The translations under genes and the position numbers were made by a program. From Escherichia phage P479, in the sequence record MW269952.1: a stretch of DNA of 64,000 nucleotides; one strand, 5' to 3'. Positions 4,627 through 27,699 of this stretch are shown one piece after another; positions within the stretch are counted from its first letter, which is position 1; each line of letters begins with the position of its first letter. Below the pieces are notes generated by a model. It was not told where the DNA came from, ran no database searches, and saw only the letters and a program-made list of their open reading frames with translations.

Positions 4627-4656
4627 GTTTACAACAGGGTTTGACCAGTACATAAT
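4627..4656 (+). promoter_or_regulatory. T4-type early promoter (GTTTAC, 18 nt, CATAAT) with conserved leader gattccatactgagtta
   Basis: gtttac 4627-4632, cataat 4651-4656; a near-identical cassette lies at 27629-27699. Confidence 0.55.
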
Positions 4657-4697
4657 GATTCCATACTGAGTTACCAAATAAAACACTGGAGAATAAA

Positions 4698-5066
4698 ATG
4701 AAAATCAATCTTAACTCATACATCAAAGGTAAAGACCACGACGGGTACAAAGCCATTGAAACTAAAGAAATGCAATGGCACTTGTATAAAGAACAATTTG
4801 AATTTGTTGGTTGCATGACTCCAGAAGGTCCTTCTGATGACTTCTCTTGGAAAATTATGGTAACAAACTTTTTTACTGGTGATACCTACGAACTGAAAAC
4901 TATCGTAACTGGTAAGATTCGTTGTAAGACCTATGAAGATGAAGAAACTGGTTATTCTGAAGATGTTACATGGTATCAAAATGGTCGCACCACTGCAGAC
5001 CTTCTGATTGAAAAAATGAAAGCTAAGGGTGAATTAAATTTAGATAATTGGATTAAAGTCGCATAA
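4698..5066 (+). CDS. hypothetical protein, 122 aa
   Basis: ORF track; RBS ggag upstream. Confidence 0.5.
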   Translation: MKINLNSYIKGKDHDGYKAIETKEMQWHLYKEQFEFVGCMTPEGPSDDFSWKIMVTNFFTGDTYELKTIVTGKIRCKTYEDEETGYSEDVTWYQNGRTTADLLIEKMKAKGELNLDNWIKVA

Positions 5067-5137
5067 AACAGTTTACTTTGGTACAGGTTATGATATTATA
5101 GACCTGTACCAACAAATGAAAACAACTGGAGAATAAA

Positions 5138-5503
5138 ATGAACTACATCAACTTTGAACGCAAATATGTTTCTAACTGCATCCCAGGTTCTTCTGAAGTT
5201 ATTTGCTTGTGGAAACATAAAAATGGTTCAGTGTGCGAAATTGAACAGTATATGACTCCTAACTACGTTTATATGCGATTTGAAAATGGTATCACCCTTT
5301 CAATCACTATGACTGGTTCAACCTTTAAAATTGCTTTAGATGATGATTTCCGTGAACGTGATTTAGGGACTCATCCTTGCTGGAATGGTGTTAATCGCAA
5401 GCTGTTGGTTAAAACTTGGATTCGTCACATCCTGAGCAACAAAGCAAAACCTGAACACCTGGAAGCAATCTTTGATGTAGTTCTTAATGAATTTGATATC
5501 TAA
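5138..5503 (+). CDS. hypothetical protein, 121 aa
   Basis: ORF track; RBS actggagaataaaATG is shared with the 4698 ORF. Confidence 0.5.
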   Translation: MNYINFERKYVSNCIPGSSEVICLWKHKNGSVCEIEQYMTPNYVYMRFENGITLSITMTGSTFKIALDDDFRERDLGTHPCWNGVNRKLLVKTWIRHILSNKAKPEHLEAIFDVVLNEFDI

Positions 5504-5539
5504 TCTTAAATGGGGCGAAAGCCCCTTGAGGAAAATACT

Positions 5540-5827
5540 ATGTTTATGACTACCTACTTTGATACACGCAAAAATTTCTGTGAAGTTGTTTTCTCTAAAA
5601 AAGGCCCTAATGTTCCTGCTGGGCGTGAACCAACTAAAGAATCCATTAAAAACTATGTGGATATAGTTTGCCCAGTTGAATTCAGGACTGTTAATGGATG
5701 TGATACCCTGGCAATCACCAAGCTTAGACGCGACATTGATATTGAACCAATTGCAGCACGTGAAATTAATTCGTCTGATATTAATGGCGGTAATGTTAAA
5801 TCACACGGTTTTCAGATGAGGTTCTAA
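5540..5827 (+). CDS. hypothetical protein
   Basis: ORF 5510-5827; internal ATG at 5540 has a better RBS (gagga). Confidence 0.4.
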   Translation: MFMTTYFDTRKNFCEVVFSKKGPNVPAGREPTKESIKNYVDIVCPVEFRTVNGCDTLAITKLRRDIDIEPIAAREINSSDINGGNVKSHGFQMRF

Positions 5828-6021
5828 TGCAACTATTCTTATCGCAAACTGTTCAGTTAAAAGGTGTGGGTATTCCTGGAATGATTTCTAAGGTTTTGCC
5901 TGCTTTTAAATTCGGTGGTATTGTAATTAAAGAAGCGTATCTAGTCTTGTGGGTTGATGGAACAGAAGACGTTCGCATGAGCGGTGAACTGTCTGTAATC
6001 AAATGTTTAAGGCGAGGATAA
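5827..6021 (+). CDS. hypothetical protein
   Basis: ORF track, 64 aa; coupled to the upstream stop. Confidence 0.35.
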   Translation: MQLFLSQTVQLKGVGIPGMISKVLPAFKFGGIVIKEAYLVLWVDGTEDVRMSGELSVIKCLRRG

Positions 6022-6022
6022 T

Positions 6023-6235
6023 ATGTTTAAGAAACTGATTCAGAAAATTTTGGGAACAGAAATGGTTGAAGTTACTTATTCAGTTATTGACCATAGTCCT
6101 TATCTTCAAGATAACAAAGAAAAAGTTATTAAAAAGATTATCCTTAAAAAGCATAACAGCTTATCTATTGAAGACCGTCTACCTGGTTATGGTCATTGGG
6201 CTGATGTAGATATTATCAGTGTCAAAGATGTCTGA
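6023..6235 (+). CDS. hypothetical protein
   Basis: ORF track, 70 aa. Confidence 0.4.
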   Translation: MFKKLIQKILGTEMVEVTYSVIDHSPYLQDNKEKVIKKIILKKHNSLSIEDRLPGYGHWADVDIISVKDV

Positions 6236-6686
6236 GTTAGAAATCAGAAGCAATTTCCCATGGCCGTCATGTGCATTAAGTAACTTTGCTAAATGGCCTT
6301 TTGTTATGGATGGCATCCAGTTTGGAGGTCTTGAAGGCTTCCTCCAAGGGTGCAAGGTGAGAAATAATGAACAACAAAAACGTATATTTGGGATGTCCGG
6401 ATTGGCCGCCCAGCAAAGTGGAAGAGCTTATGCAAGAGCTGCGGACCGTGGGACGCTTTTCTGGCGTGGAATTCCCTTTTCAAGATACTCTACAGCATGG
6501 AAAGAGTTGTATACAAATGCATATTTTGAAGCAGCGCTCCAAAACAAAGGATTCCGCGACGCATTACAAGCCACAAAGGGCAAAGTTTTAAAGCATTCGA
6601 TGGCGAGCCACCTTACTGTTCATGATACAATATTGACTGAACAAGAATTTATTGACATACTTAACCAATTGAGAGATGCATTATGA
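6228..6686 (+). CDS. NADAR-family (YbiA-like, DUF1768-type) protein; positional equivalent of T4 30.3
   Basis: Motif LSNFAKWPFVMDGIQFGGLEGFLQGCK matches the SNFA-WP...DG...E...K pattern of E. coli YbiA/NADAR as recalled; synteny in the 30.x cluster. Confidence 0.55.
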   Translation: MSELEIRSNFPWPSCALSNFAKWPFVMDGIQFGGLEGFLQGCKVRNNEQQKRIFGMSGLAAQQSGRAYARAADRGTLFWRGIPFSRYSTAWKELYTNAYFEAALQNKGFRDALQATKGKVLKHSMASHLTVHDTILTEQEFIDILNQLRDAL

Positions 6687-7531
6687 AACCCGTTATTTTA
6701 ACCGATATTGATGGCGTATGTTTGTCATGGCAGTCTGGCTTGCCTTATTTCGCTCAAAAATATAATTTACCCCTGGAACATATCCTTAAGATGATTCAGG
6801 ATGAAAAATTTGTGACCCCTGGTAAACTGTTCAATTGTGATGAAGAGTTAGGAGCGCAGTTAATTGAAAAATATAACTGTTCAGATTTTATTCGCTATTT
6901 GTCTCCTTACACAGATGCGTTAAGGGTTATTAATAACCTCAAAGAGCAATATGATTTTGTGGCTGTTACAGCCCTGGGTGATTCTATTGATGCTCGCCTG
7001 AATCGTCAATTCAACCTGAATGCTTTGTTCCCTGGGGCGTTTAAAGAAGTGATGATGTGTGGTCATACAGCCTCTAAAGAAGAGTTATTCCAGAAAGCGA
7101 AGACCAAATATAATGTCGTTTGTTATATTGATGACCTTGCACACCATTGCGACCATGCGAGTGAAATCCTTGAAGTCCCGGTTTATTGGATGGCTCGTGG
7201 TGAACGTGATGCTATTCCTAAAACAGCTTCCAAAGTTTTTAATTGGGACGATGTTGCTGGACAGCTTAAACTGAAACACAAAGATGAACCGGTCAAGCCA
7301 GAATACACCCCTGATGAACTCCGTAAACTGGACGAGCTGTTTCGTGAAACTCGCCGTCTTCAGCAGCAAATGCAGCAAGGCTGGCAGCCAGGTCAACCAT
7401 GGACTCCTGGATATAATCCAGCGTATCCATATCAATATAATCCAGCGTACCCATATCAATATGGTCCACGCGTAGGTACTGGCATTGAATATTGGTACAA
7501 TCAACCGACCGGTGGCCAAGGGGGTAATTGA
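6683..7531 (+). CDS. HAD-superfamily-like hydrolase with Q/P/Y-rich low-complexity C-terminal tail (positional equivalent of T4 30.2)
   Basis: N-terminal ILTDIDGV resembles the HAD phosphatase motif I (DxDG); C-terminus ...QQQMQQGWQPGQPWTPGYNPAYPYQYNPAYPYQYGPRVG... is encoded by a tandem 24-bp repeat. Confidence 0.5.
   Translation: MKPVILTDIDGVCLSWQSGLPYFAQKYNLPLEHILKMIQDEKFVTPGKLFNCDEELGAQLIEKYNCSDFIRYLSPYTDALRVINNLKEQYDFVAVTALGDSIDARLNRQFNLNALFPGAFKEVMMCGHTASKEELFQKAKTKYNVVCYIDDLAHHCDHASEILEVPVYWMARGERDAIPKTASKVFNWDDVAGQLKLKHKDEPVKPEYTPDELRKLDELFRETRRLQQQMQQGWQPGQPWTPGYNPAYPYQYNPAYPYQYGPRVGTGIEYWYNQPTGGQGGN
7414..7461 (+). repeat. tandem 24-bp direct repeat x2 (one mismatch) inside the 6683-7531 CDS
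   Basis: taatccagcgtatccatatcaata / taatccagcgtacccatatcaata; encodes the duplicated NPAYPYQY. Confidence 0.85.
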
Positions 7532-7809
7532 TGTTTGTCGTTCATACTATTTCAGACCATGGTCCAGTCACCACGATGGATTACGGTCATGTTAACCAGT
7601 TTATTCGTCATGTGAATCATAATTACTCGTTTGATATTAATCCGGCCAAGGATAACCCCATCTGGCGGGAATGTGTTGAACAAGGATTTATCTATGTTCA
7701 CTTCATGACTAAAATGAAACCAGATGGGGCGACTAAATTTGTGTTCACTTATCATAAGCGGTTGGATTTGCTTTTGGAAGATGTGGCATATAATAGAGCC
7801 AACGACTAA
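7528..7809 (+). CDS. hypothetical protein (positional equivalent of T4 30.1)
   Basis: ORF track, 93 aa; ATGA overlap with the upstream gene. Confidence 0.45.
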   Translation: MMFVVHTISDHGPVTTMDYGHVNQFIRHVNHNYSFDINPAKDNPIWRECVEQGFIYVHFMTKMKPDGATKFVFTYHKRLDLLLEDVAYNRAND

Positions 7810-7812
7810 GAG

Positions 7813-9351
7813 GTGATTATGATTTTAGATATTTTAAATGAAATTGCTGCAACCGATTCCACTAAAGAGAAACAAGCTATCCTGGAATCGTATTCTGACA
7901 ATGAAACCCTCAAACGTGTGTATCGTTTGACATATTCCAAAGGCATCCAGTTCTATATTAAGAAATGGCCAAAACCTGGGACAACGACTCAAAGCTTTGG
8001 TATGCTGAATATCGATGATATGCTTGACTTTATTGAATTCACATTAGCCTCTCGTAAATTAACAGGTAATGCTGCAATCGAGGAATTATCTGGCTATATT
8101 GCTGATGGTAAAAAAGCAGATGTTGAAGTCCTGCGGCGTGTTATGATGCGTGACCTGGAATGCGGGGCATCCGTATCAATTGCGAATAAGGTTTGGAAAG
8201 GTTTAATTCCTGAACAACCACAGATGCTCGCTTCTTCCTATGATGAAGCCGGTATTGCCAAGAACATTAAGTTCCCGGCCTTTGCGCAATTGAAAGCCGA
8301 CGGCGCTCGGTGTTTTGCAGAAGTTCGTGGCGATGAGTTGGATGATGTTCGATTGCTATCCCGAGCTGGTAACGAATACCTTAAGCTTGACCTCCTTAAA
8401 AAGGAATTGATTGAAGCTACCCGTGAAGCGCGTGAGAGGCATCCTGAGGGCGTTTTGATTGACGGCGAGTTAGTATATCATGAACAGAAAATAGCTCCAC
8501 AGAATGATGGTTTGGGTTTCCTTTTTGACGATTCAGATGAGATTGCTCCTGCAAAAGAAACCGCAGAATCAAGAACATTTTCGAATGGTATGGCAAACAA
8601 ATCATTAAAAGGAACCATTTCTGCAACAGAAGCTTCTTGCATGAAATTCCAGGTTTGGGATTATGTTCCACTGATTGAAGTCTATTCTGATGTTAAGATT
8701 CTCAATCCGTTGAAATACGATGTGCGTTTTGCTGTTCTGGAAAAGATGATTGCAGATAACGTGGTGCTACATGGTTTCGACCGCATGATTCTGATTGAAA
8801 ACCATGTTGTTAACAATCTCGATGAAGCGAAGGTTATCTATAAGAAATATGTGGATGAAGGTCTTGAAGGTATTATCCTTAAGAACATGGCATCGATTTG
8901 GGAAAACAAGCGCTCAAAGAACTTGTACAAGTTCAAAGAAGTAATTGACATTGCAATGGAAATCATTGGATATTACGAGCACGATAAAGACCCGAATAAG
9001 ATTGGCGGTGTTGTGCTTCGTTCTTCTTGTGGTAAGATTACAAATAACTGTGGTTCTGGTTTTAAAGACACAACTCAAGTTAAAGATAAGAAAACCAAAA
9101 AATGGGTTACTATTCCGATTGAGGAGCGTCATGAAATGGACCGTGAAGCCTTGATGGTTAAAGCCCGTAAAGGTGAATTGGTTGGAATGATTGCCGACTG
9201 TGAATGTAATGGTTGGTTGACTTCCGAGACTCGTAAAGATAATACGGTTGCATTGTTCCTGCCGATTATCAAAGGGTTCCGTTTCGATAAAGACCATGCA
9301 GACACATTCGAAGATGTATTTGGCGACTGGTCAAAGACCGGGTTAAAATAA
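7813..9351 (+). CDS. 30: ATP-dependent DNA ligase gp30
   Basis: 512 aa; N-terminus MILDILNEIAATDSTKEKQAILESY... matches recalled T4 ligase; adenylation motif KADG (AQLKADGAR) present. Confidence 0.9.
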   Translation: MIMILDILNEIAATDSTKEKQAILESYSDNETLKRVYRLTYSKGIQFYIKKWPKPGTTTQSFGMLNIDDMLDFIEFTLASRKLTGNAAIEELSGYIADGKKADVEVLRRVMMRDLECGASVSIANKVWKGLIPEQPQMLASSYDEAGIAKNIKFPAFAQLKADGARCFAEVRGDELDDVRLLSRAGNEYLKLDLLKKELIEATREARERHPEGVLIDGELVYHEQKIAPQNDGLGFLFDDSDEIAPAKETAESRTFSNGMANKSLKGTISATEASCMKFQVWDYVPLIEVYSDVKILNPLKYDVRFAVLEKMIADNVVLHGFDRMILIENHVVNNLDEAKVIYKKYVDEGLEGIILKNMASIWENKRSKNLYKFKEVIDIAMEIIGYYEHDKDPNKIGGVVLRSSCGKITNNCGSGFKDTTQVKDKKTKKWVTIPIEERHEMDREALMVKARKGELVGMIADCECNGWLTSETRKDNTVALFLPIIKGFRFDKDHADTFEDVFGDWSKTGLK

Positions 9352-9352
9352 C

Positions 9353-9374
9353 AAAAGGGCTTCGGCCCTTTTTT
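9353..9374 (+). terminator. rho-independent terminator after the ligase gene
   Basis: gggc-ttcg-gccc hairpin followed by tttttt. Confidence 0.65.
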
Positions 9375-9376
9375 AG

Positions 9377-9384
9377 TATAAATA
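9377..9384 (+). promoter_or_regulatory. T4-type late promoter TATAAATA upstream of alt
   Basis: tataaata 25 nt upstream of the alt ATG. Confidence 0.6.
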
Positions 9385-9409
9385 CATCATATTTTATAAG
9401 GAACCTATT

Positions 9410-11470
9410 ATGTCTGAACAATTAAATGAACTCTTTGACAAATATATCGAAGCCTTCGATTATCCTGTCATTAATATGAATCCGAAATACAAGGTCCCAC
9501 AGGTTTGGCAATTCGGTGTTCCTGGGACCAATTCTCTTATGGCCCGTTTGATGCAATTCACGGGCAAAGAAACAGTTAAACAATATAAACGCGGCGATGC
9601 AATTGCCGAGGTATTCCTGCTCTCCGGGACTTCACATGGCCATGCTGTTCCTCTGAAGGGTGGTCTAGGTGAAAAACCTCTTGATGCGATTAACCTGATT
9701 TTTGTTACAGTCTGGGAAAGCATTAAACTAGGCAAACCTGATGTAGTCTTGTTCCGTTTCCCATCCAAAAAGATGAAAGGGCAAGACCAAGCTGTTATTC
9801 GTATTATGAATCGACTGATTCAAATGAAAACCAGCGGGCGTTATCATGTTCTTCCAAATGCTTCTGGTCTCGGTAAAAAGAACGCATACGTAATTATGTA
9901 CAAAAAGGGTGTTGACCTGCTTTCGGTTGATGGTATGCCACCAGTCCCTGAGAAATATCAAAAAGTTGAAACTAAAGTTGGCGATGTATTCACCAATAAA
10001 GATACAGGTGCACAAGTCTCCAAACAAGAAATCGCAGCCGAAGTTCTGATTGACGCAGCAAACAAAAAGACCGATGCTGCTGTTGCCCAGAAAACTAAAA
10101 TAAGTCGCCGAGCTATTGCACAAGCCCAGTATGCTCCAAGTGATTCCGTGCCCGATGGCTGGGACGAAATTGATGCAGAAGCTGCTAAGTTTAGTCGACC
10201 GGCTACGGCAGAACTTATCGATGATTATGAAGAACTGGAAATTTTTGTTCGACCTTCCGAAACGAATACTATGGCTCGTATGCGCGCAGCAGATGAGGCT
10301 ATGCGAGCAAATGGTGTTTGGAAAGAAGAAATTCGTGTTGAAGACTCTGACCCAATTTTTAACCGTATGCATCGTGAACTTAAACGTGCCCCTGTTGGCA
10401 GTATGAAGCAGATGCAGATTTTTGCCGAATCATGTGCCGAGATTCTTAACCTTCGCAAAGCCGCATTTATCGAAAGAAAAATGAATGATGCTCCTCCTAA
10501 CCTGGATGCAGCCACTTATGCAGCCTCGCTCTGGGAAAAAGAATACACAAGCGCCATTCGTGTTGCAGTTAAAGACTTTGCCGAAGAAGCATCAGAAAAT
10601 ACTCTTAATTTCACAGCAGGATATACTGACAACCGTTTCCATTATGGCCAGCGAGAAGCAATTGCAGATTATTGTGGAGCAAACTATGCCGATATTAATA
10701 ATTATTTGATGGGCAAATATTATGAAGAAGAAGCTGAATTCCTAAATCTAGACAGAGTTGTCGAAACAATTAAGGAATTGGATTCGGCCTTTGAAATTGG
10801 ACATAAGTTGCCGCCTAATACAACTCTTTGGCGTGGTCAATATTTAAACGTTCCTACATTTGATAAAATTAAGAAATCTAAATTATTTTATTTCAGGAAC
10901 TATGTATCAACGTCGTTTAAACCGATTATCTTTGGTGGCTGGGTGGCGAACGTTGCTATGGCTGCAGTTCATCAGGACTATCGTGATGGGACATCTTTCC
11001 AGGCTGATGACGAAATTGTTTTACCAGATATGCCAGCTGTACGCCGCGACCATGTAATGATGCATGTTGGTTGGAAAATTTCTGGGGCGGACTTAATTAA
11101 CGTAATTGTTCCTGGGGAATTGTCAAGCAACCCGTCCGAGCAGGAAGTTATTCTTCCTCGTGGGACTGTAGTTAAGATTACCAAAATTACTGATGCTTCG
11201 TATCAAGGAAACGCGAACGTCAAAATGCTGGAAGCTGATATCCAGACTACGGACCAACTGGATGAAAATGCAGTTATCTATGATGGTGATGTGTTGATGG
11301 AAACTGGTGAGCTTGTCGTTTATCAGGGCGAGGAATCAGAAGAGCCAGTAGAATCTGTTGACTTTGCATCGTTTGCATCCTCTGGGGTGACGAAGAAAGT
11401 CAATCAAGGTCTTGGTATTCTTGCTAGTTGTATTAATTTGGAAGCTATTCCTCCTAAATTCCTTTCGTAG
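9410..11470 (+). CDS. alt: Alt-like ADP-ribosyltransferase (virion-packaged)
   Basis: 686 aa (T4 Alt about 680 aa); position adjacent to gene 30 as in T4; C-terminal block ...NVVLPGELSSNPSEQEVILPRGTVVKITKITDASY... resembles recalled T4 Alt. Confidence 0.75.
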   Translation: MSEQLNELFDKYIEAFDYPVINMNPKYKVPQVWQFGVPGTNSLMARLMQFTGKETVKQYKRGDAIAEVFLLSGTSHGHAVPLKGGLGEKPLDAINLIFVTVWESIKLGKPDVVLFRFPSKKMKGQDQAVIRIMNRLIQMKTSGRYHVLPNASGLGKKNAYVIMYKKGVDLLSVDGMPPVPEKYQKVETKVGDVFTNKDTGAQVSKQEIAAEVLIDAANKKTDAAVAQKTKISRRAIAQAQYAPSDSVPDGWDEIDAEAAKFSRPATAELIDDYEELEIFVRPSETNTMARMRAADEAMRANGVWKEEIRVEDSDPIFNRMHRELKRAPVGSMKQMQIFAESCAEILNLRKAAFIERKMNDAPPNLDAATYAASLWEKEYTSAIRVAVKDFAEEASENTLNFTAGYTDNRFHYGQREAIADYCGANYADINNYLMGKYYEEEAEFLNLDRVVETIKELDSAFEIGHKLPPNTTLWRGQYLNVPTFDKIKKSKLFYFRNYVSTSFKPIIFGGWVANVAMAAVHQDYRDGTSFQADDEIVLPDMPAVRRDHVMMHVGWKISGADLINVIVPGELSSNPSEQEVILPRGTVVKITKITDASYQGNANVKMLEADIQTTDQLDENAVIYDGDVLMETGELVVYQGEESEEPVESVDFASFASSGVTKKVNQGLGILASCINLEAIPPKFLS

Positions 11471-11472
11471 GG

Positions 11473-11502
11473 GTTTACAAGCACAAGGAAGTGCGATACA
11501 AT
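11473..11502 (+). promoter_or_regulatory. T4-type early promoter (GTTTAC, 18 nt, TACAAT)
   Basis: gtttac 11473-11478, tacaat 11497-11502; followed by the same leader cacatgaggaaaacaaaATG as at 976-998. Confidence 0.5.
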
Positions 11503-11533
11503 GTTCATATCAATTGCACATGAGGAAAACAAA

Positions 11534-11824
11534 ATGAAATCATCTTTTCGCTTTAATGGTCAGGAACTGGTAGTTGAGAATGTTATCCCGGCTTCAGAAG
11601 AGTTTGACAGCGCGGTGGGTAATGAACTGCGGCGCGTGTTTGGCGAAGATAAGAAGTTTGACCTTCGCCCTGTTGAAAACTTTGTAAATTCTGAACAAAC
11701 AGAAAATATTTTTAATGGTGTAGTAACTGGGCAACTTGAATCTGAAGCACCAATTGCAATTACAGTCTTTGCTAAGAAAGAAGTTGTAATGACTGCAGCA
11801 GGTTTCATTTCATTCCGCAAATAA
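11534..11824 (+). CDS. hypothetical protein (alt-downstream small ORF)
   Basis: ORF 11501-11824; internal ATG at 11534 with RBS gaggaaaacaaa. Confidence 0.45.
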   Translation: MKSSFRFNGQELVVENVIPASEEFDSAVGNELRRVFGEDKKFDLRPVENFVNSEQTENIFNGVVTGQLESEAPIAITVFAKKEVVMTAAGFISFRK

Positions 11825-11853
11825 AAAAGGGACCTTCGGGTCCCTTTCTTTTT
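11823..11853. terminator. bidirectional terminator hairpin (GGGACC-ttcg-GGTCCC) between the convergent 11534 ORF and gene 54
   Basis: Perfect 6-bp stem flanked by an A-run on the left and a T-run on the right. Confidence 0.7.
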
Positions 11854-12811
11854 ATAATATACGTTGACTTCCACCAGAGACTGTTCTCCCAGAACCAGTG
11901 AACGTATTGTACAGACTTGTTAATCCAGATTGAGCACCAGACAAGCGGCTCAATTTGGCAACTTCTGAGTTCAAGTTGTTATCTGAACTAATACCAGATA
12001 CACCCTTAATAACCTTATCTTCCAACCATTCCAATGCCGCAGCTCTTCCCACCGCACCAGTTGACATAACGCGATAAGCAAAAGTCACATCAAATGTAGC
12101 TATCTGATTATCCCCTTCATAGCTCAATTCAGGCGCAGATACACTTACAGGAACACAACCAGTTAACATAACAACCGTGTGCGGTAACCCATTACGTGAA
12201 TGAAGGTTAACCTGAATATCAGCTTCAACGTCTTCAGGCAAAGCCCTTAGCTGGGTAACTGGGTCCTGTACAGAGTTAACCCAATCGTTAAATGCTCTGA
12301 AGTTCCCTGCCTCTGAATCCATTCTAAAGCTCAATACCAACGGAGAATATTCTCTCCCGGTTATCTTGATATTTGGTGCATTATGGTTAAGGTCCATTTC
12401 GTAGTTCAATGTGTTATCCGGAAGCTTAACAGAGTGAACTAATAGACCAGCCGTTGGATATGCCATATTAAAGAAATCAAGTAGGTAAGTACCAACCTCA
12501 AATTCCCCCAATAATGATTGCACAACACGGTTACTCATTGCACCGATAAGATATTTGCTTATCCCTGATTTACGAATAAGCTTTTGTGTTCCGGCCGTAA
12601 CAAGAGTTGTTATCCCCTGAGTTAAGTCACCTTGTGTTAATCCGAACCAATCTGAGTTAACAGGAAGGTTACTGAATAATGCACCCCCGAACTGGTCCAG
12701 AAGATTCTGAGATTTGGAGGAAGGCGTGGTCGCGAAGACCACACTAAAAAGGTTATTCCTCTGCAAGTCGATATTAATCGCTTGTGTTTGAAATTCTTGT
12801 AAAGTAAACAT
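11852..12811 (-). CDS. 54: baseplate tail-tube initiator gp54
   Basis: 319 aa (T4 gp54 320 aa); synteny 54-48-29-28-27-51. Confidence 0.8.
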   Translation of the reverse strand: MFTLQEFQTQAINIDLQRNNLFSVVFATTPSSKSQNLLDQFGGALFSNLPVNSDWFGLTQGDLTQGITTLVTAGTQKLIRKSGISKYLIGAMSNRVVQSLLGEFEVGTYLLDFFNMAYPTAGLLVHSVKLPDNTLNYEMDLNHNAPNIKITGREYSPLVLSFRMDSEAGNFRAFNDWVNSVQDPVTQLRALPEDVEADIQVNLHSRNGLPHTVVMLTGCVPVSVSAPELSYEGDNQIATFDVTFAYRVMSTGAVGRAAALEWLEDKVIKGVSGISSDNNLNSEVAKLSRLSGAQSGLTSLYNTFTGSGRTVSGGSQRIL

Positions 12812-13905: not shown

Positions 13906-13913
13906 GTTATTCC

Positions 13914-18066: not shown

Positions 18067-18078
18067 TATTTATAAATA
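18067..18078. promoter_or_regulatory. overlapping divergent late promoters (TATAAATA on both strands) for genes 51 and 26
   Basis: tatttataaata: - strand TATAAATA at 18067-18074 (25 nt before the gene 51 ATG), + strand TATAAATA at 18071-18078 (17 nt before the gene 26 ATG). Confidence 0.6.
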
Positions 18079-18095
18079 CAGTAAAGGAGCAAATT

Positions 18096-19109: not shown

Positions 19110-19146
19110 TGCTTTAATTTTATGGCTGTATAATGGTTCTAGACCC
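19107..19146 (+). promoter_or_regulatory. MotA-box middle promoter upstream of uvsY (equivalent of T4 P_uvsY)
   Basis: aTGCTTTA box 19109-19116, TATAAT 19129-19134, conserved GGTTCTAGACCC 19135-19146; the same position as the classical T4 uvsY middle promoter. Confidence 0.6.
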
Positions 19147-19162
19147 TTACATTGGATACATT

Positions 19163-19830: not shown

Positions 19831-19970
19831 ATGAAAAATATTAGTAAGATTCTCGACGAGATGGTTATCTCTGCAAACCGAATAACCGAAATTGTTAATG
19901 AGATGAAAGCTCGTGCTGCTATTATGAAGAACACTAAATAGATATGTAAGTTTAACTGAGGAGACAATCA

Positions 19971-20138
19971 TGTCAGATAAGATTTGTGTTGTCTGTAAAA
20001 CTCCAATCGATTCTGCATTGGTTGTGGATACAGACCAAGGTCCGGTGCATCCGGGCGCCTGTTATAATTATGTTCAGAGTTTGCCAGTTACGGAAAATAC
20101 AGAAGAGCAACTGAACGAGACCCAACTTTTAATTTAGC
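19971..20138 (+). CDS. small Cys-containing protein, 55 aa (uvsY.-2 position)
   Basis: ATG at 19971 with RBS gaggag; MSDKICVVCKTPIDS...HPGACYNY suggests a possible CxxC...C metal site. Below the ORF-track cutoff. Confidence 0.35.
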
Positions 20139-20194
20139 TAGTGTTGTTAACCATTTTTGGTTTTGCCCCTTCCTTTTGGTTGGGGCCTTTTTAT

Positions 20195-20422
20195 TTAGAA
20201 ATCTTCGTCTTCTTCGTCGTCCATATCCTCAAGCTCGGCGCGTTTACCGGCAAGAGCATCACGAACACTGATATCATCGGAATCTTTCAGTTCAGCTTCT
20301 TTGCTGCGTTTCTTATAATAGCCTTCCAACTCCTTCAGACCGTCCATGGTCTGACAGGAACCAATCTTAGCCATAAAGCCTTCAATTGATGCTTCGTACA
20401 TAATTTCTTCGAAGGATTTCAT
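20195..20422 (-). CDS. small acidic protein (positional equivalent of T4 UvsW.1)
   Basis: 75 aa with an acidic C-terminus (EDMDDEEDEDF); lies downstream of uvsW, separated from it by the HNH gene. Confidence 0.45.
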   Translation of the reverse strand: MKSFEEIMYEASIEGFMAKIGSCQTMDGLKELEGYYKKRSKEAELKDSDDISVRDALAGKRAELEDMDDEEDEDF

Positions 20423-21207
20423 TATATTTCCACCTGTTTAATAAATTTATCGACCATTTTCCCATAGTGTACTTTAGGATATCCAGCTTCGACAGCGATT
20501 TTGGTAAATCCCGTTACTTTAGGTTTATTGTTATTTATCCAAAGTAAAAATAACTCGTCATATAATAGCCAATGCGGATATTTTTTGGCATGAGTCTCTT
20601 TCCAATTTTTGGAATGGTCTTCACTTCTAAAAGATTTTTTAACACCTTTATTTGCCTTTCCCGCCTTAGAACATGTCGCATAATCACCCGCCTTGACAGG
20701 AGTAAATCCTTTCATAGCTTTAGATTTTTTGTCACGCGTTTCCTGAGACTGTTTGGACCCGGTGTTTTTTGCCCAGGCCTTTTCCAAAGCTTTTAATTTC
20801 GCGGGAGTGAATCCGACTTTTCGCATGGCGTCAATATGTATTTGGAGACGTTCTGCGGACCATTCATATGAACCATGATTATTACCCATCAAAGCTTCAC
20901 TAATTAAATGTGATGCCTTTTCTTTAAGCAGTGTAATGGTTCTTGAACTAACTTCTTTTAGGCGTCGACCGTTTGTCATACCAAATGCTGCGCGCCATAA
21001 TTTACCACCTTGTGCTTTTGCTAAAATAACATGAGCTAATATATGTTCACGAACTGTTAAAGCAACTAAATTATTAGGATGGTTGGAACCTCCAACCGAC
21101 TTTGGTATAATATGATGTATTTCAATTCGACAAGGAGCAGAGGTCTTTGTCCAACCCCTTGTCCTTGCATTTGAAATTAAATCATCGTAAATTTTTTGAT
21201 AATTCAT
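20422..21207 (-). CDS. HNH-family homing endonuclease (Mob-like)
   Basis: 261 aa; N-terminal EIHHIIPKSVGGSNHPNNLVALTVREH is an HNH motif; ATGA-type overlaps with both neighbours. Confidence 0.7.
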   Translation of the reverse strand: MNYQKIYDDLISNARTRGWTKTSAPCRIEIHHIIPKSVGGSNHPNNLVALTVREHILAHVILAKAQGGKLWRAAFGMTNGRRLKEVSSRTITLLKEKASHLISEALMGNNHGSYEWSAERLQIHIDAMRKVGFTPAKLKALEKAWAKNTGSKQSQETRDKKSKAMKGFTPVKAGDYATCSKAGKANKGVKKSFRSEDHSKNWKETHAKKYPHWLLYDELFLLWINNNKPKVTGFTKIAVEAGYPKVHYGKMVDKFIKQVEI

Positions 21208-22703: not shown

Positions 22704-22731
22704 GATGATTCCAAGGTAATAAATATATCTA

Positions 22732-22739
22732 TATTTATA
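22732..22739 (-). promoter_or_regulatory. T4-type late promoter for uvsW
   Basis: + strand tatttata = TATAAATA on -, 29 nt upstream of the uvsW ATG. Confidence 0.55.
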
Positions 22740-22757
22740 CACTAACCGAGGTTCATC

Positions 22758-23423
22758 ATGATTGACAAGAACTACATTGAGGAAATTCGTGTCCTCGAGA
22801 AAAAAGAAGCCAAAGAAAAATTAGCCGAATATGCAGCATCACTTGGTGTTGATGTTAAGAAAACAAAAACCTTTGATAATATGTTGGCTGACCTGGAAGC
22901 AGGACTTAAAGCATTTGCTGACATGCCTATGCCTGATGATAATGAAGGCCTGAGCATCACTGACCTTATCGATGCCGATGATGAATTGTCAGGTGCTAAA
23001 TTTGATGGTGATGAGTCAGCTAAAGAAGAAGCTAAGCTCTTATTTGATGCTCCAACCGAAGCAAAGGTTGAAGTTGTTGAAATCGAAGAACCAGTTGTTG
23101 TGGTTGAAGAAGATGCTCCTTTTGTCGAAGAAAAGTTCGAAGCTGCTGTTGCTAAGGTTATCGAATCTGAAAAACCCGTATTTGCTCTGCCAAAAAACTT
23201 TAGCCCGAATTTAATGCTTATTGGTAAGAACCCTGGATTCTGCACTGTTCCATGGTGGATTTATCAGTGGATTGCCGAGACTCCAGATTGGAAAGAACGT
23301 CCAACTGCTTTCCCACATCCCACCGCACACCAAACTCTATTCAGTTTGATTTATTACATCAATCGTAATGGGTCTGTTCTAGTACGAGAAACTCGTAACT
23401 CATCTTTTGTCACTTTAAAATAA
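22758..23423 (+). CDS. Inh-like protein (positional equivalent of the T4 inhibitor of prohead protease)
   Basis: 221 aa (T4 Inh about 226 aa); lies directly upstream of hoc as in T4; acidic, Ala/Glu/Lys-rich N-terminal half. Confidence 0.4.
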   Translation: MIDKNYIEEIRVLEKKEAKEKLAEYAASLGVDVKKTKTFDNMLADLEAGLKAFADMPMPDDNEGLSITDLIDADDELSGAKFDGDESAKEEAKLLFDAPTEAKVEVVEIEEPVVVVEEDAPFVEEKFEAAVAKVIESEKPVFALPKNFSPNLMLIGKNPGFCTVPWWIYQWIAETPDWKERPTAFPHPTAHQTLFSLIYYINRNGSVLVRETRNSSFVTLK

Positions 23424-23432
23424 GGGTTTATT

Positions 23433-24566
23433 ATGGCTTATACCGTAACTATTGCTCCTTTGGCGGCTACGGCCGTTATTGGGGCAACAACAAATTTCAC
23501 TGCAACCGGTTCCGGTGCTGCAGCTGAAGGTACCGAATCATTTGTCTGGACCGTTGATGGCGTTCCTCAATCTTCTGTGACTGCTGCAATGGATTATGTC
23601 GCTGTTGGTCCAGCAGGCAGTAAGACTATTAAAGTTGTTGCAACCACCACTCCGGCAGACGGGGAACCGGAAACTGCTGAAGCTGAAACAACTTTAACTA
23701 TCCAGAATAAAACAATGCCGGCAATCACGCTGACTTTAGACCCGGCCTCTGTTACTAAAGAAATAGGGCAATCTCAAGTTGTTACTGCTAACGTGACAGG
23801 CGCTCCTTCTGGTGCAACAATCGCTTATGTTTGGAAACGAAATGCCGACGTAATCCCAGGACAAACTGGTAAAACAATCACCGTCACCGAATCGGCTGAA
23901 GCAAATTATACATTGAACTGTGAAGTTACTGTTTCAGCAGCAGATTATGATAATGGCACAGCAACTGAAGGTGCTGCTGTTATCTTTGTTAAGAAAACTA
24001 TGTCAGGTGTTTCTGTAACATTAACCCCAGAATCAATTAATGTTCCGGAAGACACCCCAGCCTCTTTTAAAGCGGATGTAGTCGGCGCACCGAGTGGAGC
24101 TACTTTTGCCTATTCTTGGAAGAAAGACGGTTCTCCTGTGGTTGGCAACACGGATACTCTAGCAATCGATACAAGCGCTGAAGGTTCACAGGTTATTGAA
24201 GTTTCTGTTGTGGTTTCGGCGACTGATTATAACCCGGCGACTGTCACAAAAACTGGTAATGTAACAGTCACGGCTAAAGTCGCACCAGTTCCAGATGGTG
24301 AACTACCTTACGTTCATCCGCTGCCAGTTCGTAATTCAGCTTATATCTGGTGTGGTTGGTGGGTTATGGACGAAATTCAGAAAATGACTCTTGCTGGACA
24401 AGACTGGAAAACTGATGCTCCAGATAGCCCGTATTATTTGCACCGATATACACTTCAAAAAATGATTACCGACTATCCAGAGGTTGATGTACAAGAATCT
24501 CGTAACGGTCGAATTATTCATCGCACCGCTTTAGAAGCTGGTATTATATACGATTACGTTTATTAA
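23433..24566 (+). CDS. hoc: Hoc, highly immunogenic outer capsid protein (Ig-like domains)
   Basis: 377 aa; repeated Ig-like segments; C-terminal ...GELPYVHPLPVRNSAYIWCGWWVMDEIQKMT...YYLHRYTLQKM...PEVDVQESRNG... matches recalled T4 Hoc. Confidence 0.85.
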   Translation: MAYTVTIAPLAATAVIGATTNFTATGSGAAAEGTESFVWTVDGVPQSSVTAAMDYVAVGPAGSKTIKVVATTTPADGEPETAEAETTLTIQNKTMPAITLTLDPASVTKEIGQSQVVTANVTGAPSGATIAYVWKRNADVIPGQTGKTITVTESAEANYTLNCEVTVSAADYDNGTATEGAAVIFVKKTMSGVSVTLTPESINVPEDTPASFKADVVGAPSGATFAYSWKKDGSPVVGNTDTLAIDTSAEGSQVIEVSVVVSATDYNPATVTKTGNVTVTAKVAPVPDGELPYVHPLPVRNSAYIWCGWWVMDEIQKMTLAGQDWKTDAPDSPYYLHRYTLQKMITDYPEVDVQESRNGRIIHRTALEAGIIYDYVY

Positions 24567-24568
24567 TT

Positions 24569-24598
24569 AAAAAGGGACCTTCGGGTCCCTTTGTTTTT
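24569..24598 (+). terminator. rho-independent terminator (GGGACC-ttcg-GGTCCC) after hoc
   Basis: Hairpin plus T-run. Confidence 0.7.
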
Positions 24599-24682
24599 AT
24601 GGTACTGTACAAACGTTGCCTGGCATAAAAACCCTGTTTACAAGTTAAAAATTCTATGATAGGATAGCTTCACTAACTCAAC

Positions 24683-24886
24683 ATGAGAATCATTATGGAT
24701 AAGGTTAAAGTACATTTTCTGCATGAATCTGGTATGACATTTATTGAAATCGCCAAGGTATTAGGCGGGACTGCTAAAGAGATGGCAAAGGCCTGGGTTG
24801 ATGTAGAACAAGCTAAAGCTAAATTTAAAACGAAAGAAAAGATTGTTTATCGTAAACGTTTGAATAACAAAAAGGTGAAGAAATGA
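24683..24886 (+). CDS. hypothetical small protein (24.3 position)
   Basis: ORF track, 67 aa; basic C-terminus. Confidence 0.4.
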   Translation: MRIIMDKVKVHFLHESGMTFIEIAKVLGGTAKEMAKAWVDVEQAKAKFKTKEKIVYRKRLNNKKVKK

Positions 24887-25146
24887 CATTCGCAGAAGAA
24901 CTACGTCAAATCGCAAAAGAATCCCAAGATAAAGTTGCAAATGACTTTATTGCTATATTCCGCAAAGTGGCAGTTGCCGCCGCTGAAAATGGCAAAGATG
25001 CTGTTAATATGGCAGTTTCTGAAAAAGAGTATGAAGAAGGAAACCGCGCAAAGATATCTGAATTTCTGCGAGCAGAAAAATTTACATCATTTACCTGGAA
25101 TTATGATTGGCAAGAAGCCAAGCCAATGCTGTATGTAAAATTCTGA
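24883..25146 (+). CDS. hypothetical small protein (24.2 position)
   Basis: ORF track, 87 aa; ATGA overlap. Confidence 0.4.
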   Translation: MTFAEELRQIAKESQDKVANDFIAIFRKVAVAAAENGKDAVNMAVSEKEYEEGNRAKISEFLRAEKFTSFTWNYDWQEAKPMLYVKF

Positions 25147-25150
25147 CCCT

Positions 25151-25190
25151 TTTTGCTTCAAATAAAAATGCGGTATAATGGTTCTAGACC
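25151..25190 (+). promoter_or_regulatory. MotA-box middle promoter upstream of rnlB
   Basis: TTTGCTTCA box 25151-25159, TATAAT 25173-25178, conserved GGTTCTAGACCCC 25179-25191. Confidence 0.55.
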
Positions 25191-25273
25191 CCTTTGCGAC
25201 TATTAATTCCTTTCAGAGAAAGTATAGTGGGTCTAATTTATAATGATATTTATAACATCAAAAGTGAGAGATT

Positions 25274-26281
25274 ATGTTTAAGAAATACAACAGCCTTGAA
25301 AATCACTATAACAACAAGTTCATTGAAAAGATTCGCCTGCAAGGCTTCACCAGCGGTGAATGGGTAGCTCGCGAGAAGATTCATGGTACCAACTTTTCAT
25401 TAATCATTGAACAAGACAATGTGACATGTGCGAAACGCACTGGACCTATCCTGCCTGCAGAAGATTTCTATGGTTATGAAATTGTACTAAAGAATTATGC
25501 TGATTCTATTAAATCTGTGCAGAAACTTTTGCAGGATATTAATTACCAGGCATACCAGATTTACGGTGAGTTTGCCGGGACAGGTATCCAGAAGAATGTG
25601 GATTACGGTGATAAAGATTTTTATGTATTTGATATCCGCGTTACTAAAGAAGATGGTTTTGAATCCGTCCTGACTGACACACTTATGGAAGCCTTTTGTA
25701 TTATTCATAAGTTTAAAGTTGCCCCGCGCCTGGCTACAGGTAGTTTTGAAGAATTAATTAAGCTACCTAATGACCTGGATTCTGTGGTCCCTGATTACAA
25801 TTTTACAGTGGATAACGCAGGATTGACTACAGCAAATACCACTGATTTTGATGCAAAGGTGGAAGGTAAAGTATTCACTGCTGAAGGATTTGTATTAAAA
25901 CCTGATGTTCCTGCATGGTTACCTAACGGCGAGCGTGTAGCGATTAAATGTAAGAACTCTAAATTCAGTGAAAAGAAAAAGTCTGATAAGCCTATTAAGG
26001 CTGCAGTGGTTCTGAGCCAAAATGATATGGATTTACTGTGGAATTTCACTGATTATGTGACTGTTAACCGTATCAACAATGTTATCAGTAAAATTGGGGA
26101 AGTAACACCGAAGGATTTTGGAAAGGTAATGGGGTTAACAGTTCAAGATATTCTGGAAGAAGCCGGGCGCGAAGGTCTTGAATTGTCCCTGACGGAAAAT
26201 CCTGTTGAAGTTAAAAAGCAACTCATCGCAAATGTAAGAGAAACATTAAGACATGTTTGGATTGCATTAGTTAGTGAATAA
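25274..26281 (+). CDS. rnlB: RNA ligase 2
   Basis: 335 aa; N-terminus [19 protein letters not shown]...[13 protein letters not shown] (ligase KxHGxN-type motif); matches recalled T4 Rnl2. Confidence 0.9.
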
Positions 26282-26283
26282 AA

Positions 26284-26312
26284 ATAAAGGGACCCGAAGG
26301 TCCCTTTTTTAA
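26284..26312. terminator. bidirectional terminator hairpin (GGGACC-cgaa-GGTCCC) between convergent rnlB and gene 24
   Basis: Hairpin with a T-run on + and an A-run on the other side. Confidence 0.7.
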
Positions 26313-27589
26313 TTTATTTCAGTCAGAACTTTAGGAAGTTTCACACCAAGCAGTACAGACATATCTGAACGTCCTGCCATCAAATCCATATTTGTTGCAT
26401 CAATAATACGAGCTTGTTTATCATCAGCAGTCACTGTATAAGGGTTAGCTGCTAACGCATAACGAACCATTAATGCAATAGACGGCTGCAAACTTTCTGG
26501 GTCAACGACAACTTTGAACGAACCAACATGTTCAGGGTCTTCCAGGTCAAGACCTTCGGTATAAGGTGCATAAAACAGTGAACCCACCATCTCTTTCCCA
26601 CCGAAATCTTCTTTAACACCAACAGTCACATAATCAAATGGAGTGTTCGTATCGCAATAAAGCGGTAGACCATTATCCAAGAAACCATACGCATTATCGG
26701 AGAGATATTTCTCATCTTGTGGACGATGCTTCAACCAACCGGAACCAGCCAAAACTGCAGCTACACGCGTAGAAGCAACAACGTATGTTGCGGTGTAAGA
26801 AGTTGCCCGCTGAATATGGGAGACCATCTCACACATGATTTCGTACAACTTGCGTGAAGCTTCCGGAGAGTTGGTATAAGACAGGTCAATCAGGCCATCA
26901 TCACAGAGCCCAGCAACTTTATAACGCTTGGAAACTGTTACCAGGGATTGCAGGATATCTTTGTTAATTTCATCAGCCATTTCGGTAGCTAACAGGTCTT
27001 CCAGGAAGTTTGGAGCGTCAAAACCGTTTGCTTCCAGGTCCTGGGCCAGTTCCACTGTAACAGTGCTTTTCAGCTTACGAGATTTAACCGGAGCATTCCA
27101 TTTGTTAACCAAAAATTTAGCTTCGGCAATTTCAACTTCCTGTGGTCCTTCAAAACGTTCGGTGATTGCAGCTTCGGACATAATACGGATGGTCAATTTA
27201 ACCATCGCTTCTTGAAGCTGGTCATACTCATCGCCCGTTGCTCCAGCAAATGGAGTTGCTACCAGCGCTTTATAAACTACATTTTCAAACTGGAACAAAT
27301 CGTCTTTAGCATAAACTGCGCCAGCAACAAAAACCGGAATGGTCGCACGGTCTTTTGCTGATACTGCACCAGAATAGGTTGCACCAGTCTGGAAAGATAA
27401 TTCATCTTGCTGAGTCAGGTATTTAAGACCGTATAATGCCGCCAGTGGCTGGGATGTGCGCTGTTGTGCTACTAAATCGGTGTAAATCAGTTTAGTCGTA
27501 GCTCTGGTTAAAGCTACTAGATTCGGTCGACCAATCGAAGAACTTGTGGTCGTGGTCGACTCTTTTAAGAGTTCGTTAATTTTAGCCAT
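26309..27589 (-). CDS. 24: capsid vertex protein gp24
   Basis: 426 aa (T4 gp24 427 aa); synteny next to gene 23. Confidence 0.85.
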   Translation of the reverse strand: MAKINELLKESTTTTSSSIGRPNLVALTRATTKLIYTDLVAQQRTSQPLAALYGLKYLTQQDELSFQTGATYSGAVSAKDRATIPVFVAGAVYAKDDLFQFENVVYKALVATPFAGATGDEYDQLQEAMVKLTIRIMSEAAITERFEGPQEVEIAEAKFLVNKWNAPVKSRKLKSTVTVELAQDLEANGFDAPNFLEDLLATEMADEINKDILQSLVTVSKRYKVAGLCDDGLIDLSYTNSPEASRKLYEIMCEMVSHIQRATSYTATYVVASTRVAAVLAGSGWLKHRPQDEKYLSDNAYGFLDNGLPLYCDTNTPFDYVTVGVKEDFGGKEMVGSLFYAPYTEGLDLEDPEHVGSFKVVVDPESLQPSIALMVRYALAANPYTVTADDKQARIIDATNMDLMAGRSDMSVLLGVKLPKVLTEIN

Positions 27590-27614
27590 TGCTATTTCCT
27601 TTTGTGATATACTT

Positions 27615-27622
27615 TATTTATA
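27615..27622 (-). promoter_or_regulatory. T4-type late promoter for gene 24
   Basis: + strand tatttata = TATAAATA on -, 26 nt upstream of the gene 24 ATG. Confidence 0.6.
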
Positions 27623-27628
27623 AAAGTT

Positions 27629-27658
27629 GTTTACAACCAGATTAAGATAAGACATAAT
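27629..27658 (+). promoter_or_regulatory. T4-type early promoter (GTTTAC, 18 nt, CATAAT), second copy of the 4627 cassette
   Basis: gtttac 27629-27634, cataat 27653-27658, followed by gattccatactgagtta as at 4657-4673. Confidence 0.55.
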
Positions 27659-27699
27659 GATTCCATACTGAGTTAACAAACAAAACCTGGAGTTTAAAA

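Follow-up and report, generated by a model that had tools for sequence, protein, structure and literature searches.

The closest described counterparts of the sequences treated here, four early promoter-leader cassettes in a 64,000-nucleotide (nt) stretch of Escherichia phage P479 (MW269952.1; the whole stretch is called the window below), are the promoter(early) stem-loop (PeSL) elements. A PeSL comprises an AT-rich tract, a stem-loop just before the promoter, a sigma-70-like early promoter, and a Shine-Dalgarno (SD) sequence with a start codon (Arbiol et al., 2010, PMC2839356; Comeau et al., 2014, PMC4122927). Such elements have been described for RB49/phi1, T4/PST and KVP40/nt-1, and they concentrate in hyperplastic regions and adjoin insertions and deletions (indels) (PMC2839356, PMC4122927). 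The T4/PST consensus reads TTTACW-N17-TAYWAT (PMC2839356, PMC4122927), and the crossovers of the RB49/phi1 mini-circles lie where the stem-loop borders on the AT-rich tract and between the -10 and the SD or ATG (PMC2839356). No description of PeSLs in the genus Gaprivervirus was found in the searchable literature.

The second related system is the T4-type early promoter, the logos of which have a GTTTAC -35 at -36 to -31, an A-rich stretch at -40 to -44, and A-11 and T-7 (PMC1524935, PMC2988021). RB69-type early promoters have C residues at -3 to -1 (Nolan et al., 2006, PMC1524935), and those of T4 have "additional regions of consensus" (Hinton, 2010, PMC2988021). The consensus of strong RegB/S1 sites in T4 early mRNAs is GG*AGRAYARAA (Durand et al., 2006, as reviewed in PMC3014915). 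In experiments, T4 recombines at microhomologies of 6-10 bp. Early promoters of T4 are reportedly the subject of a study by Liebig and Ruger from 1989. Lambdoid morons are self-contained promoter-gene-terminator inserts, which are typically prophage-expressed and have no family-wide promoter or leader sequence.

By megablast the window belongs to a T4-like coliphage of the genus Gaprivervirus, with the Shigella phage SP18 and the Escherichia phages VR20, VR26 and TH15 as relatives (92-98% identity to Gaprivervirus genomes, none of the matched records being identical). Comparison with these genomes suggests that the four cassettes are very probably sigma-70 early promoter plus leader/ribosome-binding site (RBS) modules of a T4-like family that take part in PeSL-type shuffling of accessory genes. 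Elements of this kind, and the part they play in evolution, have been published before; specific to the present case are a clade-restricted leader, called type A, and unusually clean junctions.

The PeSL consensus fits cassettes 2a and 2b and nearly fits 1a and 1b, in which CATAAT departs at the first base. Cassette 1a has every sequence feature of a PeSL, and an SD with a start codon stands at the 3' end of all four, the ORFs being borne out by Pfam matches or homologues. As in the described PeSLs, small accessory open reading frames (ORFs) come after the repeated units, indels or replacements adjoin or enter the units, and crossovers among Gapriverviruses fall at the same positions as in the RB49/phi1 mini-circles. 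The PeSL papers place no emphasis on crossovers exactly at the edge of the -35 or on the long invariant transcribed core of type A. The cassettes also fit the T4-type early promoter features and stand, correctly oriented, 5' of early ORFs, novel ones included, 2b lacking the A-rich tract. Both the type-B leader and the GGAGAATAAAATG block also occur in T4; Gaprivervirus, for its part, prefers GTGTACA and has a clade-specific second leader type that T4 lacks. The cassette-1b unit resembles a moron in being autonomous and placed on the opposite strand between two late structural genes, but it belongs to the early regulon of a lytic phage.

Four cassettes and their pairwise similarity

The cassettes and a related promoter are located as follows.

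4613-4656, + strand: promoter of cassette 1a; A/T-rich tract, -35 GTTTAC(A) at 4627-4632, 18-nt spacer, -10 CATAAT at 4651-4656
4657-4700, + strand: type-A leader of cassette 1a; GATTCC, predicted +1 at A4663, core ATACTGAGTTA(c)CAAA, RBS, ATG
27629-27702, + strand: cassette 1b; GTTTAC at 27629-27634, CATAAT at 27653-27658, type-A leader, GGAG at 27689-27692, ATG at 27700-27702
938-998, + strand: cassette 2a; GTTTAC at 938-943, 17-nt spacer, TATAAT at 961-966, ATG at 996-998 of a 173-amino-acid (aa) ORF (996-1517)
11473-11536, + strand: cassette 2b; GTTTAC at 11473-11478, 18-nt spacer, TACAAT at 11497-11502, leader ...ATCAAttgCACATGAGGAAAACAAAATG, ATG at 11534-11536
5071-5140, + strand: early promoter of gene 30.7; GTTTAC, 17-nt spacer, TATTAT, RBS block AACTGGAGAATAAAATG

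In cassette 1 the transcription start is predicted at the A of CCATACTG (4663 in 1a, 27665 in 1b) because of the spacing and the rule of C residues at -3 to -1. The 1a leader has gattccatactgagtta at 4657-4673, GGAG at 4688-4691 and a RegB/S1-type RBS, GGAGAATAAAA, at 4688-4698, which runs into the ATG at 4698-4700; the SD of 1b, CTGGAGTTT, is an imperfect RegB site. Read in the sigma-70 register, both copies are TTTACA-17-CATAAT (10/12 to consensus), directly preceded at the -35 by an AT-rich tract (ttttttattttccataaagg at 4607-4626 in 1a, tttatttataaaagtt at 27613-27628 in 1b). The -35 of both is GTTTACAAC, where most paralogues have GTGTACA. A repeat finder recovered the pair independently (family D4; 64 nt, 78% identical, ungapped), and local alignment joins 4609-4712 to 27613-27715. 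Within the window the exact 22-nt core ATAATGATTCCATACTGAGTTA occurs at these two sites only, even at 3 mismatches, and shuffled sequences are expected to hold 0.00 copies. The promoter at 5071, upstream of 30.7, came up in a relaxed scan as a third related site with the same RBS block as 1a.

The identity of 2a and 2b is confined to the two hexamers, ATCAA and an exact 21-nt block, CACATGAGGAAAACAAAATGA (979-999 and 11517-11537; 0.01 matches expected in shuffles), while their spacers and upstream regions are unrelated. The spacer of 2a contains an internal hairpin, CACCAcggaTGGTG, and its leader is a type-B variant, ...ATCAAC-ACATGAGGAAAACAAAATG. Upstream of the -35 the AT-rich tract is weak in 2a (aatttaagt) and absent from 2b (cctttcgtaggg); the sigma-70 registers are TTTACT-16-TATAAT and TTTACA-17-TACAAT, respectively, each 10/12 to consensus. 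At no more than 1 mismatch the 21-nt ribosome-binding block is found in 5 copies in SP18, 5 in TH15 and 2 in T4. A 5-codon mini-ORF within it, ATGAGGAAAACAAAATGA (ATG AGG AAA ACA AAA TGA; 982-999 and 11520-11537), has a stop that overlaps the main start (ATGA). It has no SD of its own, its TGA is not in the T4 copy of the block, and it was set aside as probably incidental.

Cassette 2b stands before alt.-3 (DUF5498; 11534-11824), and a terminator comes next at 11826-11847. The longest ORF of alt.-3 starts at 11501, inside the -10 hexamer TACAAT(G), and this 107-aa form is the one annotated in SP18. Over all of its 96 positions the Pfam model of DUF5498 aligns with the full 96-aa product from 11534, the start that follows a GAGG SD, and therefore the start annotated in relatives is probably 11 codons too long.

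Both cassette pairs had been pointed out in the first-pass annotation, and they are found where it placed them, with a similarity far beyond chance. The coding sequences downstream are unrelated, as it had claimed: blastp between the proteins behind the four cassettes gave no match, and Pfam returned Phage_30_8 for 1a, DUF5498 for 2b and none for the other two. The 93-aa ORF behind 1b indeed lies in the late region, between gp24 and gp23. A similarity limited to the generic -35, -10 and RBS consensus, the outcome that would have spoken against that annotation, is what the promoter half of cassette 2 shows; the 21-nt RBS block goes beyond it.

Leader types and the part shared by the family

A scan for generic sigma-70 hexamers found 31 pairs against 28.8 expected and is uninformative in AT-rich DNA such as the window; therefore a phage-specific pattern was used. 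It matched 44 sites on the early strand of SP18, the genome of which was reassembled for the family-wide counts, vs 9 on the other strand, and 12 vs 1 in the window. An SD and an ATG come next at about 35 of the SP18 matches, and there are approximately 35-40 early promoter-leader modules per genome. Their common layout is an A-rich tract, GT(G/T)TACA, a spacer, (C/T)ATAAT, g.tt/cCC and the leader. Leaders are of type A (AUACUGAGUUAcCAAA / ATACTGAGTTAcCAAA...; cassette 1, specific to Gaprivervirus), type B (AUCAACUACUGA... / ATCAACTACTGA(T)GAGGA...; shared with T4, with cassette 2 as a variant) or a small type C.

At up to 1 mismatch the type-A core is present in 14 copies in SP18, 12 in TH15 and 0 in T4, and the type-B core in 14, 14 and about 10. 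In SP18, 13 copies of the type-A core were counted at up to 3 mismatches; all lie on the early strand, and no two precede the same gene. The genes behind SP18 type-A copies are srd, nrdC.8, frd.1, 30.8, the ORF in the gp24|gp23 gap and several ORFans. In each Gaprivervirus genome the 61-nt leader of cassette 1a has matches at 9-13 places. The identity of 1a and 1b from -45 to the ATG is 0.81, compared with 0.74-0.83 between either of them and other paralogues and 0.88-1.0 between each and its own orthologue.

All 595 pairs of SP18 early promoters, compared region by region, served as the similarity baseline. The cassette-1 pair ranks at the 66th percentile in the upstream 25 nt, at the 78th in the spacer and at the 98.8th in the leader from the -10 to the ATG; for the cassette-2 pair the percentiles are the 4th, the 57th and the 97.6th. 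Only the leader is unusually similar, and the common unit is therefore the transcribed leader with its RBS, while the promoter resemblance is the generic consensus of the phage group. A column profile of 25 type-A copies from the window, SP18 and TH15 holds about 2 bits per position across ATAAT-GATTCCATACTGAGTTA, which is the -10 and 17-22 nt of leader. Among paralogues the information in the spacer is about 0 bits, but from genome to genome the spacer of a given locus is preserved.

Functional constraint, rather than shared descent, accounts for part of the extended identity, because the RBS block GGAGAATAAAA(TG) fits the RegB/S1 consensus at 11/11 positions. In the window such full matches lie in 1a, in the 30.7 promoter (5128-5138) and in a cassette at 63600 (63648-63658). 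All matches to the consensus are the same string (12 in SP18, 11 in TH15 and 3 in the window, with about 1 in shuffles). All those of SP18 and the window and 10/11 of those of TH15 are on the early strand, and the ones inspected stand directly downstream of an early promoter. T4 holds the GGAGAATAAAATG block in 7 copies, and regB is annotated in SP18. Like the RegB/S1 sites of T4 early mRNAs, those of the window overlap the SD and the start codon and lie in unstructured leaders, as RegB requires; cleavage in P479 is predicted.

The IMG/VR database was scanned with the 14-mer TCCATACTGAGTTA, which proved too short: nearly all of the 120 loci were chance hits. After a context filter 19 passed, 18 of them convincing and one dubious, and these revealed no wider taxonomic range.

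The best promoter repeat in the window lies outside the four cassettes.

63250-63660, + strand: two cassettes of type B, separated by 334 nt (their -35 at 63266 and at 63600; identity of 87% over 63 nt; repeat families D3 and D5)

These two flank a 92-aa ORF of internal-protein type that starts with MKTYQEFI, an N-terminus common to SP18 genes annotated as internal head proteins, and the 63600 cassette contains GGAGAATAAAATG. Their tandem layout is the arrangement that the PeSL model predicts to excise as a mini-circle. A different repeat, TATAATGGTTCTA, occurs four times exactly (19129-19141, 25174-25186 and 34061-34073 on the + strand, 60266-60278 on the - strand; 0.16 expected). A MotA-box-like motif, (T)GCTT, stands ahead of three of these copies, at about -30, and middle-type promoters therefore also seem to have a conserved block behind the -10, at the start site.

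Breakpoints in related genomes and competing explanations

The following features flank the two cassette-1 loci.

4587-4612, + strand: terminator hairpin AGGGACTCttcgGAGTCCCT (also written GGGACTCttcgGAGTCCC) with T-run, from the terminator scan; ends the 30.9 unit and is the "SL" of a PeSL-type cassette
4698-5066, + strand: gene 30.8 (Pfam Phage_30_8), downstream of cassette 1a
26309-27589, - strand: gp24, late gene on one side of the 93-aa ORF
27615-27622, - strand: late promoter of gene 24 (TATAAATA), identified by direct reading; overlaps the A/T tract of cassette 1b
27700-27981, + strand: 93-aa ORF; no Pfam family, homologous to JS98 gp173 / SP18 gp189
27987-28013, no strand assigned: bidirectional terminator hairpin GGGACCtcaaGGGTCCC, which closes the cassette-1b unit (repeat family D1)
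28032-29591, - strand: gp23, late gene on the other side of the 93-aa ORF

The hairpin upstream of 1a has an 8-bp stem (4587-4606) followed by the T-run. A promoter orthologous to 1a was found in SP18, TH15 and VR20. In SP18 an extra gene, 30.6A, stands between the 30.9 terminator hairpin and the promoter; TH15 resembles the window. The 30.6A insert ends in its own near-identical hairpin, GACTCCttcgGGAGTC, with a T-run, which places the junction within the repeated hairpin/T-run.

In the gp24|gp23 gap, the 93-aa ORF is transcribed against the flanking late genes. The upstream half of its module (the TATAAATA late promoter and TTGTTTACA) is kept in the window, SP18, TH15, EP01 (a Tequatrovirus), ATK47 (a Mosigvirus) and T4, and the genomes diverge from the first spacer base on. 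A type-A leader followed by the 93-aa ORF is found in the window and in SP18, whose orthologue of cassette 1b is 100% identical. In EP01 and ATK47 a homologous ORF follows a type-B-like leader, with a GIY-YIG endonuclease as well in ATK47, and T4 has a third leader and segD only. In TH15, which is identical to the window as far as TTGTTTACA, the spacer, -10 and leader are different and precede a 219-aa segD-like homing endonuclease with its own terminator hairpin; the sequences of TH15 and the window rejoin at the gp23 stop.

Further junctions between SP18 and TH15 lie directly after the -35 GTGTACA (gp131 and frd.1 loci), at the SD, GGAGAATAAAATG (frd.1), directly after ATGAAA (gp281), and between the hairpin/T-run and the A-tract (gp148/149 and gp098). 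VR20 and SP18 have unlike sequences at the gp147 locus from the -35 to the -10 inclusive and come together again within the conserved leader. One 30-nt spacer/-10 block, CCAAATGGGGCTATGACATAATGGTCCCA, is common to the frd.1 promoter of SP18 and the gp131-locus promoter of TH15. In SP18 and TH15, neither 2a nor 2b showed a rearrangement.

These junctions bear on the claim of the first-pass annotation that the cassettes are portable units before unrelated accessory genes, and they support it: related genomes show breakpoints at the module edges, including both cassette-1 loci. They do not support promoter and leader as one unit, since only the leader rises above the baseline and the modules reassort separately: at the edge of the -35, within the leader, and at both the SD and the ATG. 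A module would consist of seven blocks: (1) an optional terminator hairpin with T-run, (2) an A-rich UP-like tract, (3) the -35 GT(G/T)TACA, (4) a locus-specific spacer, (5) the -10 with C-rich -3 to -1, (6) the leader, and (7) the stretch from the SD to the ATG. To judge from the consensus, host RNA polymerase would fire these promoters right after infection, and the unstructured leader would allow efficient translation. Where the RBS is GGAGAATAAAA, RegB and ribosomal protein S1 would cut the SD and shut the gene off after the early phase. Present in dozens of repeats with a single orientation, the blocks would provide short homology patches for the highly active T4-type recombination, and exchanges at their edges would insert, delete or replace accessory ORFs with the expression signals undisturbed. 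The similarity of the flagged pairs would then be due to family membership and purifying selection on blocks 5-7 and not to a specific duplication.

Near-identical, mostly bidirectional terminators of the form GGGACC-(TTCG/CGAA)-GGTCCC, flanked by A/T-runs and of the C(UUCG)G tetraloop type, were noted at 11820-11855, 24565-24600, 26280-26315, 27983-28018 and 47690-47725. It is possible that this hairpin family serves as 3' homology arms for module exchange.

Pure convergence, in which selection imposes one set of signals (UP, -35, -10, start-site context, RegB/S1 site and A-rich spacer) on all early promoters and RBSs and cassettes are neither transferred nor recombined, would explain why spacers and upstream regions are no more alike than in random promoter pairs. 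It would also explain why the RBS block equals a known functional consensus, and why T4 has the type-B leader and RBS block in common despite long divergence. It is nevertheless unlikely, as orthologous loci carry different leader types across genomes with sharp junctions, an identical 30-nt non-consensus spacer/-10 block stands at two loci in two genomes, and the clade-specific type-A core, with 0 copies in T4, is hard to derive from generic host constraints. The first-pass annotation had called the cassettes duplicated. A recent one-off duplication or transposition, of the 30.8 promoter-leader into gp24|gp23 and, for cassette 2, from the cd.3 region to alt.-3, is highly improbable even though 1a and 1b share a -35 unlike that of most paralogues and rank 2nd to 4th among each other's neighbours. 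The two are members of a family of about 13 (12-14 type-A copies per genome), are no closer to one another than to other paralogues, and have unrelated spacers. The gp24|gp23 copy, moreover, is identical in SP18, and the arrangement is therefore older than the split of these phages.

With 17-22 nt invariant over 25 copies and no assigned function, the leader might be thought a structured cis-regulatory RNA (riboswitch or thermosensor) or a small RNA. This is barely credible for an element of only about 35 nt from +1 to the AUG that is unstructured as own-promoter RNA (minimum free energy -0.5 to -1.6 kcal/mol, z = +0.3 to +0.9) and has z of about +0.4 in read-through form; an Rfam search over the whole window gave no match. 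Sequestration of the SD by an upstream UUCCA in read-through RNA was likewise rejected, with only 5 bp and no covariation in variant copies. Chance resemblance in an AT-rich genome could be argued from the generic hexamer pairs, which do not exceed shuffles, but its probability is negligible given the expectations of 0.00 and 0.01 for the exact 22-nt and 21-nt cores, the strand bias and the placement before start codons.

Several points weigh against shuffled PeSL-type modules, the explanation preferred here. The upstream stem-loop that defines a strict PeSL is present only at 1a; there is none at 1b, where the divergent gene-24 late promoter lies, or at 2a and 2b, where coding sequence extends up to the -35. 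As promoter-ORF-terminator units, 1b and 2b are complete. The SDs of 1b (GGAGTTTAAAA, 8/11) and of cassette 2 (GAGG) misfit the RegB consensus, which also sets them apart from the T4 sites. In the whole comparison of SP18 and TH15, 10/47 rearrangements touch a cassette and 35/266 gene junctions carry one. The former fraction exceeds the per-base expectation (cassettes make up about 2.6% of the genome) and does not clearly exceed that for random gene junctions; among the other events are many insertions into core genes that have the size of a homing endonuclease. With enrichment significant only against the per-base null, the case rests on the junction sequences: by these the cassettes demonstrably serve as exchange points, and a preference over other intergenic sites is not demonstrated. 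Promoter activity, start sites and cleavage in P479 are predictions from the sequence, and very frequent short-tract gene conversion could mimic selection on the invariant type-A core.

Inverted repeats around the -10 and the genomic setting

Many early promoters have a spacer complementary to the bases immediately behind the -10, and the sequences of the arms differ between promoters. The arm pairs include GGGGTC/GACCCC, GGGAGC/GCTCCC, GATGGGATA/TATCCCATC, GGTACAGGTT/AACCTGTACC and CAGTATGGAGTC/GATTCCATACTG. The mean longest perfect stem in SP18 is 5.44 (n = 34; 13 stems of at least 6), compared with 4.27 +/- 0.20 for re-paired spacers and leaders (z = 5.8; 0/2000 permutations reach the observed value); in T4 it is 5.15 vs 3.99 (z = 6.4; 0/2000). 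At denV the inverted repeat extends to the SD in both SP18 and T4. About 40% of early promoters have such a repeat bracketing the -10, among them those at 5071, 62276, 63266 and 63600 of the window. Two of them are given here.

5071-5110, + strand: repeat GGTACAGGT/ACCTGTACC of the 30.7 promoter; read-through hairpin of -17.4 kcal/mol, z = -3.4
62276-62306 (repeat region to 62320), + strand: early promoter with GTGTAC, TATTAT and repeat GTGTAGG/CCTACAC, upstream of a 121-aa ORF (62304-62669)

The hairpin at 62276 has -15.4 kcal/mol (z = -2.2). The cassettes at 63266 and 63600 both have GATGGGATA/TATCCCATC around the -10. The three sites folded, 5071, 62276 and 63266, gave -15 to -17 kcal/mol at z values of -2.2 to -3.4, and the loop of each contains the -10. 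No such fold around the -10 was found in cassettes 1 and 2. Over SP18 and T4 together the repeat accompanies 1/11 promoters with an upstream terminator and 26/56 without one (Fisher p = 0.04; Mann-Whitney p = 0.007), an association that is only suggestive because the promoters of the two phages are partly orthologous.

A transcript from a module's own promoter begins within the 3' arm, and the hairpin could therefore form only in read-through RNA or in extruded DNA. On one reading the repeat separates read-through transcripts, which have the hairpin, from promoter-proximal ones, which do not; on another the repeats tend to form cruciforms and, as hot spots of recombination, drive the shuffling of modules. 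A neutral origin through quasi-palindrome template switching is a live alternative. No description of an inverted repeat bracketing the -10 was found in the searchable literature. That the type-A initially transcribed sequence (17-22 nt) and the covarying -10 repeat form an undescribed regulatory layer of T4-type early promoters is a rather doubtful proposition. The repeat is the only part of the locus with some potential novelty and, if true, would be cheap to test in T4.

By the SP18 annotation, the gene order on the + strand is cd.x, cd, 31, rIII, 30.9, 30.8, 30.7 ... 30, alt, alt.-3, and the late genes of the - strand (54, 48, 29 ...) come after alt.-3. Two further genes taken from that annotation are the following.

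5138-5503, + strand: gene 30.7
9410-11470, + strand: alt

Gene content differs from SP18 at three other places. The window has one alt gene (difference noted at 9403-9410), where SP18 and some relatives have two tandem alt paralogues (alta, altb). At 20422-21207 (- strand) an ORF for a 261-aa HNH endonuclease takes the place of a different homing endonuclease of SP18, in a uvsW-proximal position. A 224-aa ORF without a Pfam match lies between gp2 and gp3 (59552-60226) and is not in SP18; about 150 nt of it resembles, inverted, the SP18 homing-endonuclease gene near pseT, and to judge by this resemblance the ORF may be a mobile endonuclease insertion.

For annotation, the modules provide a rule by which early transcription units and correct start codons can be recognised in the genus, e.g., that of alt.-3 at 11534. 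They also mark out which small ORFs are early genes with expression of their own, a class to which anti-defence factors belong. An early-gene slot within the capsid gene block holds an ORFan or a homing endonuclease alternately, and the PeSL model of modular shuffling gains a fourth lineage together with examples of clean junctions.

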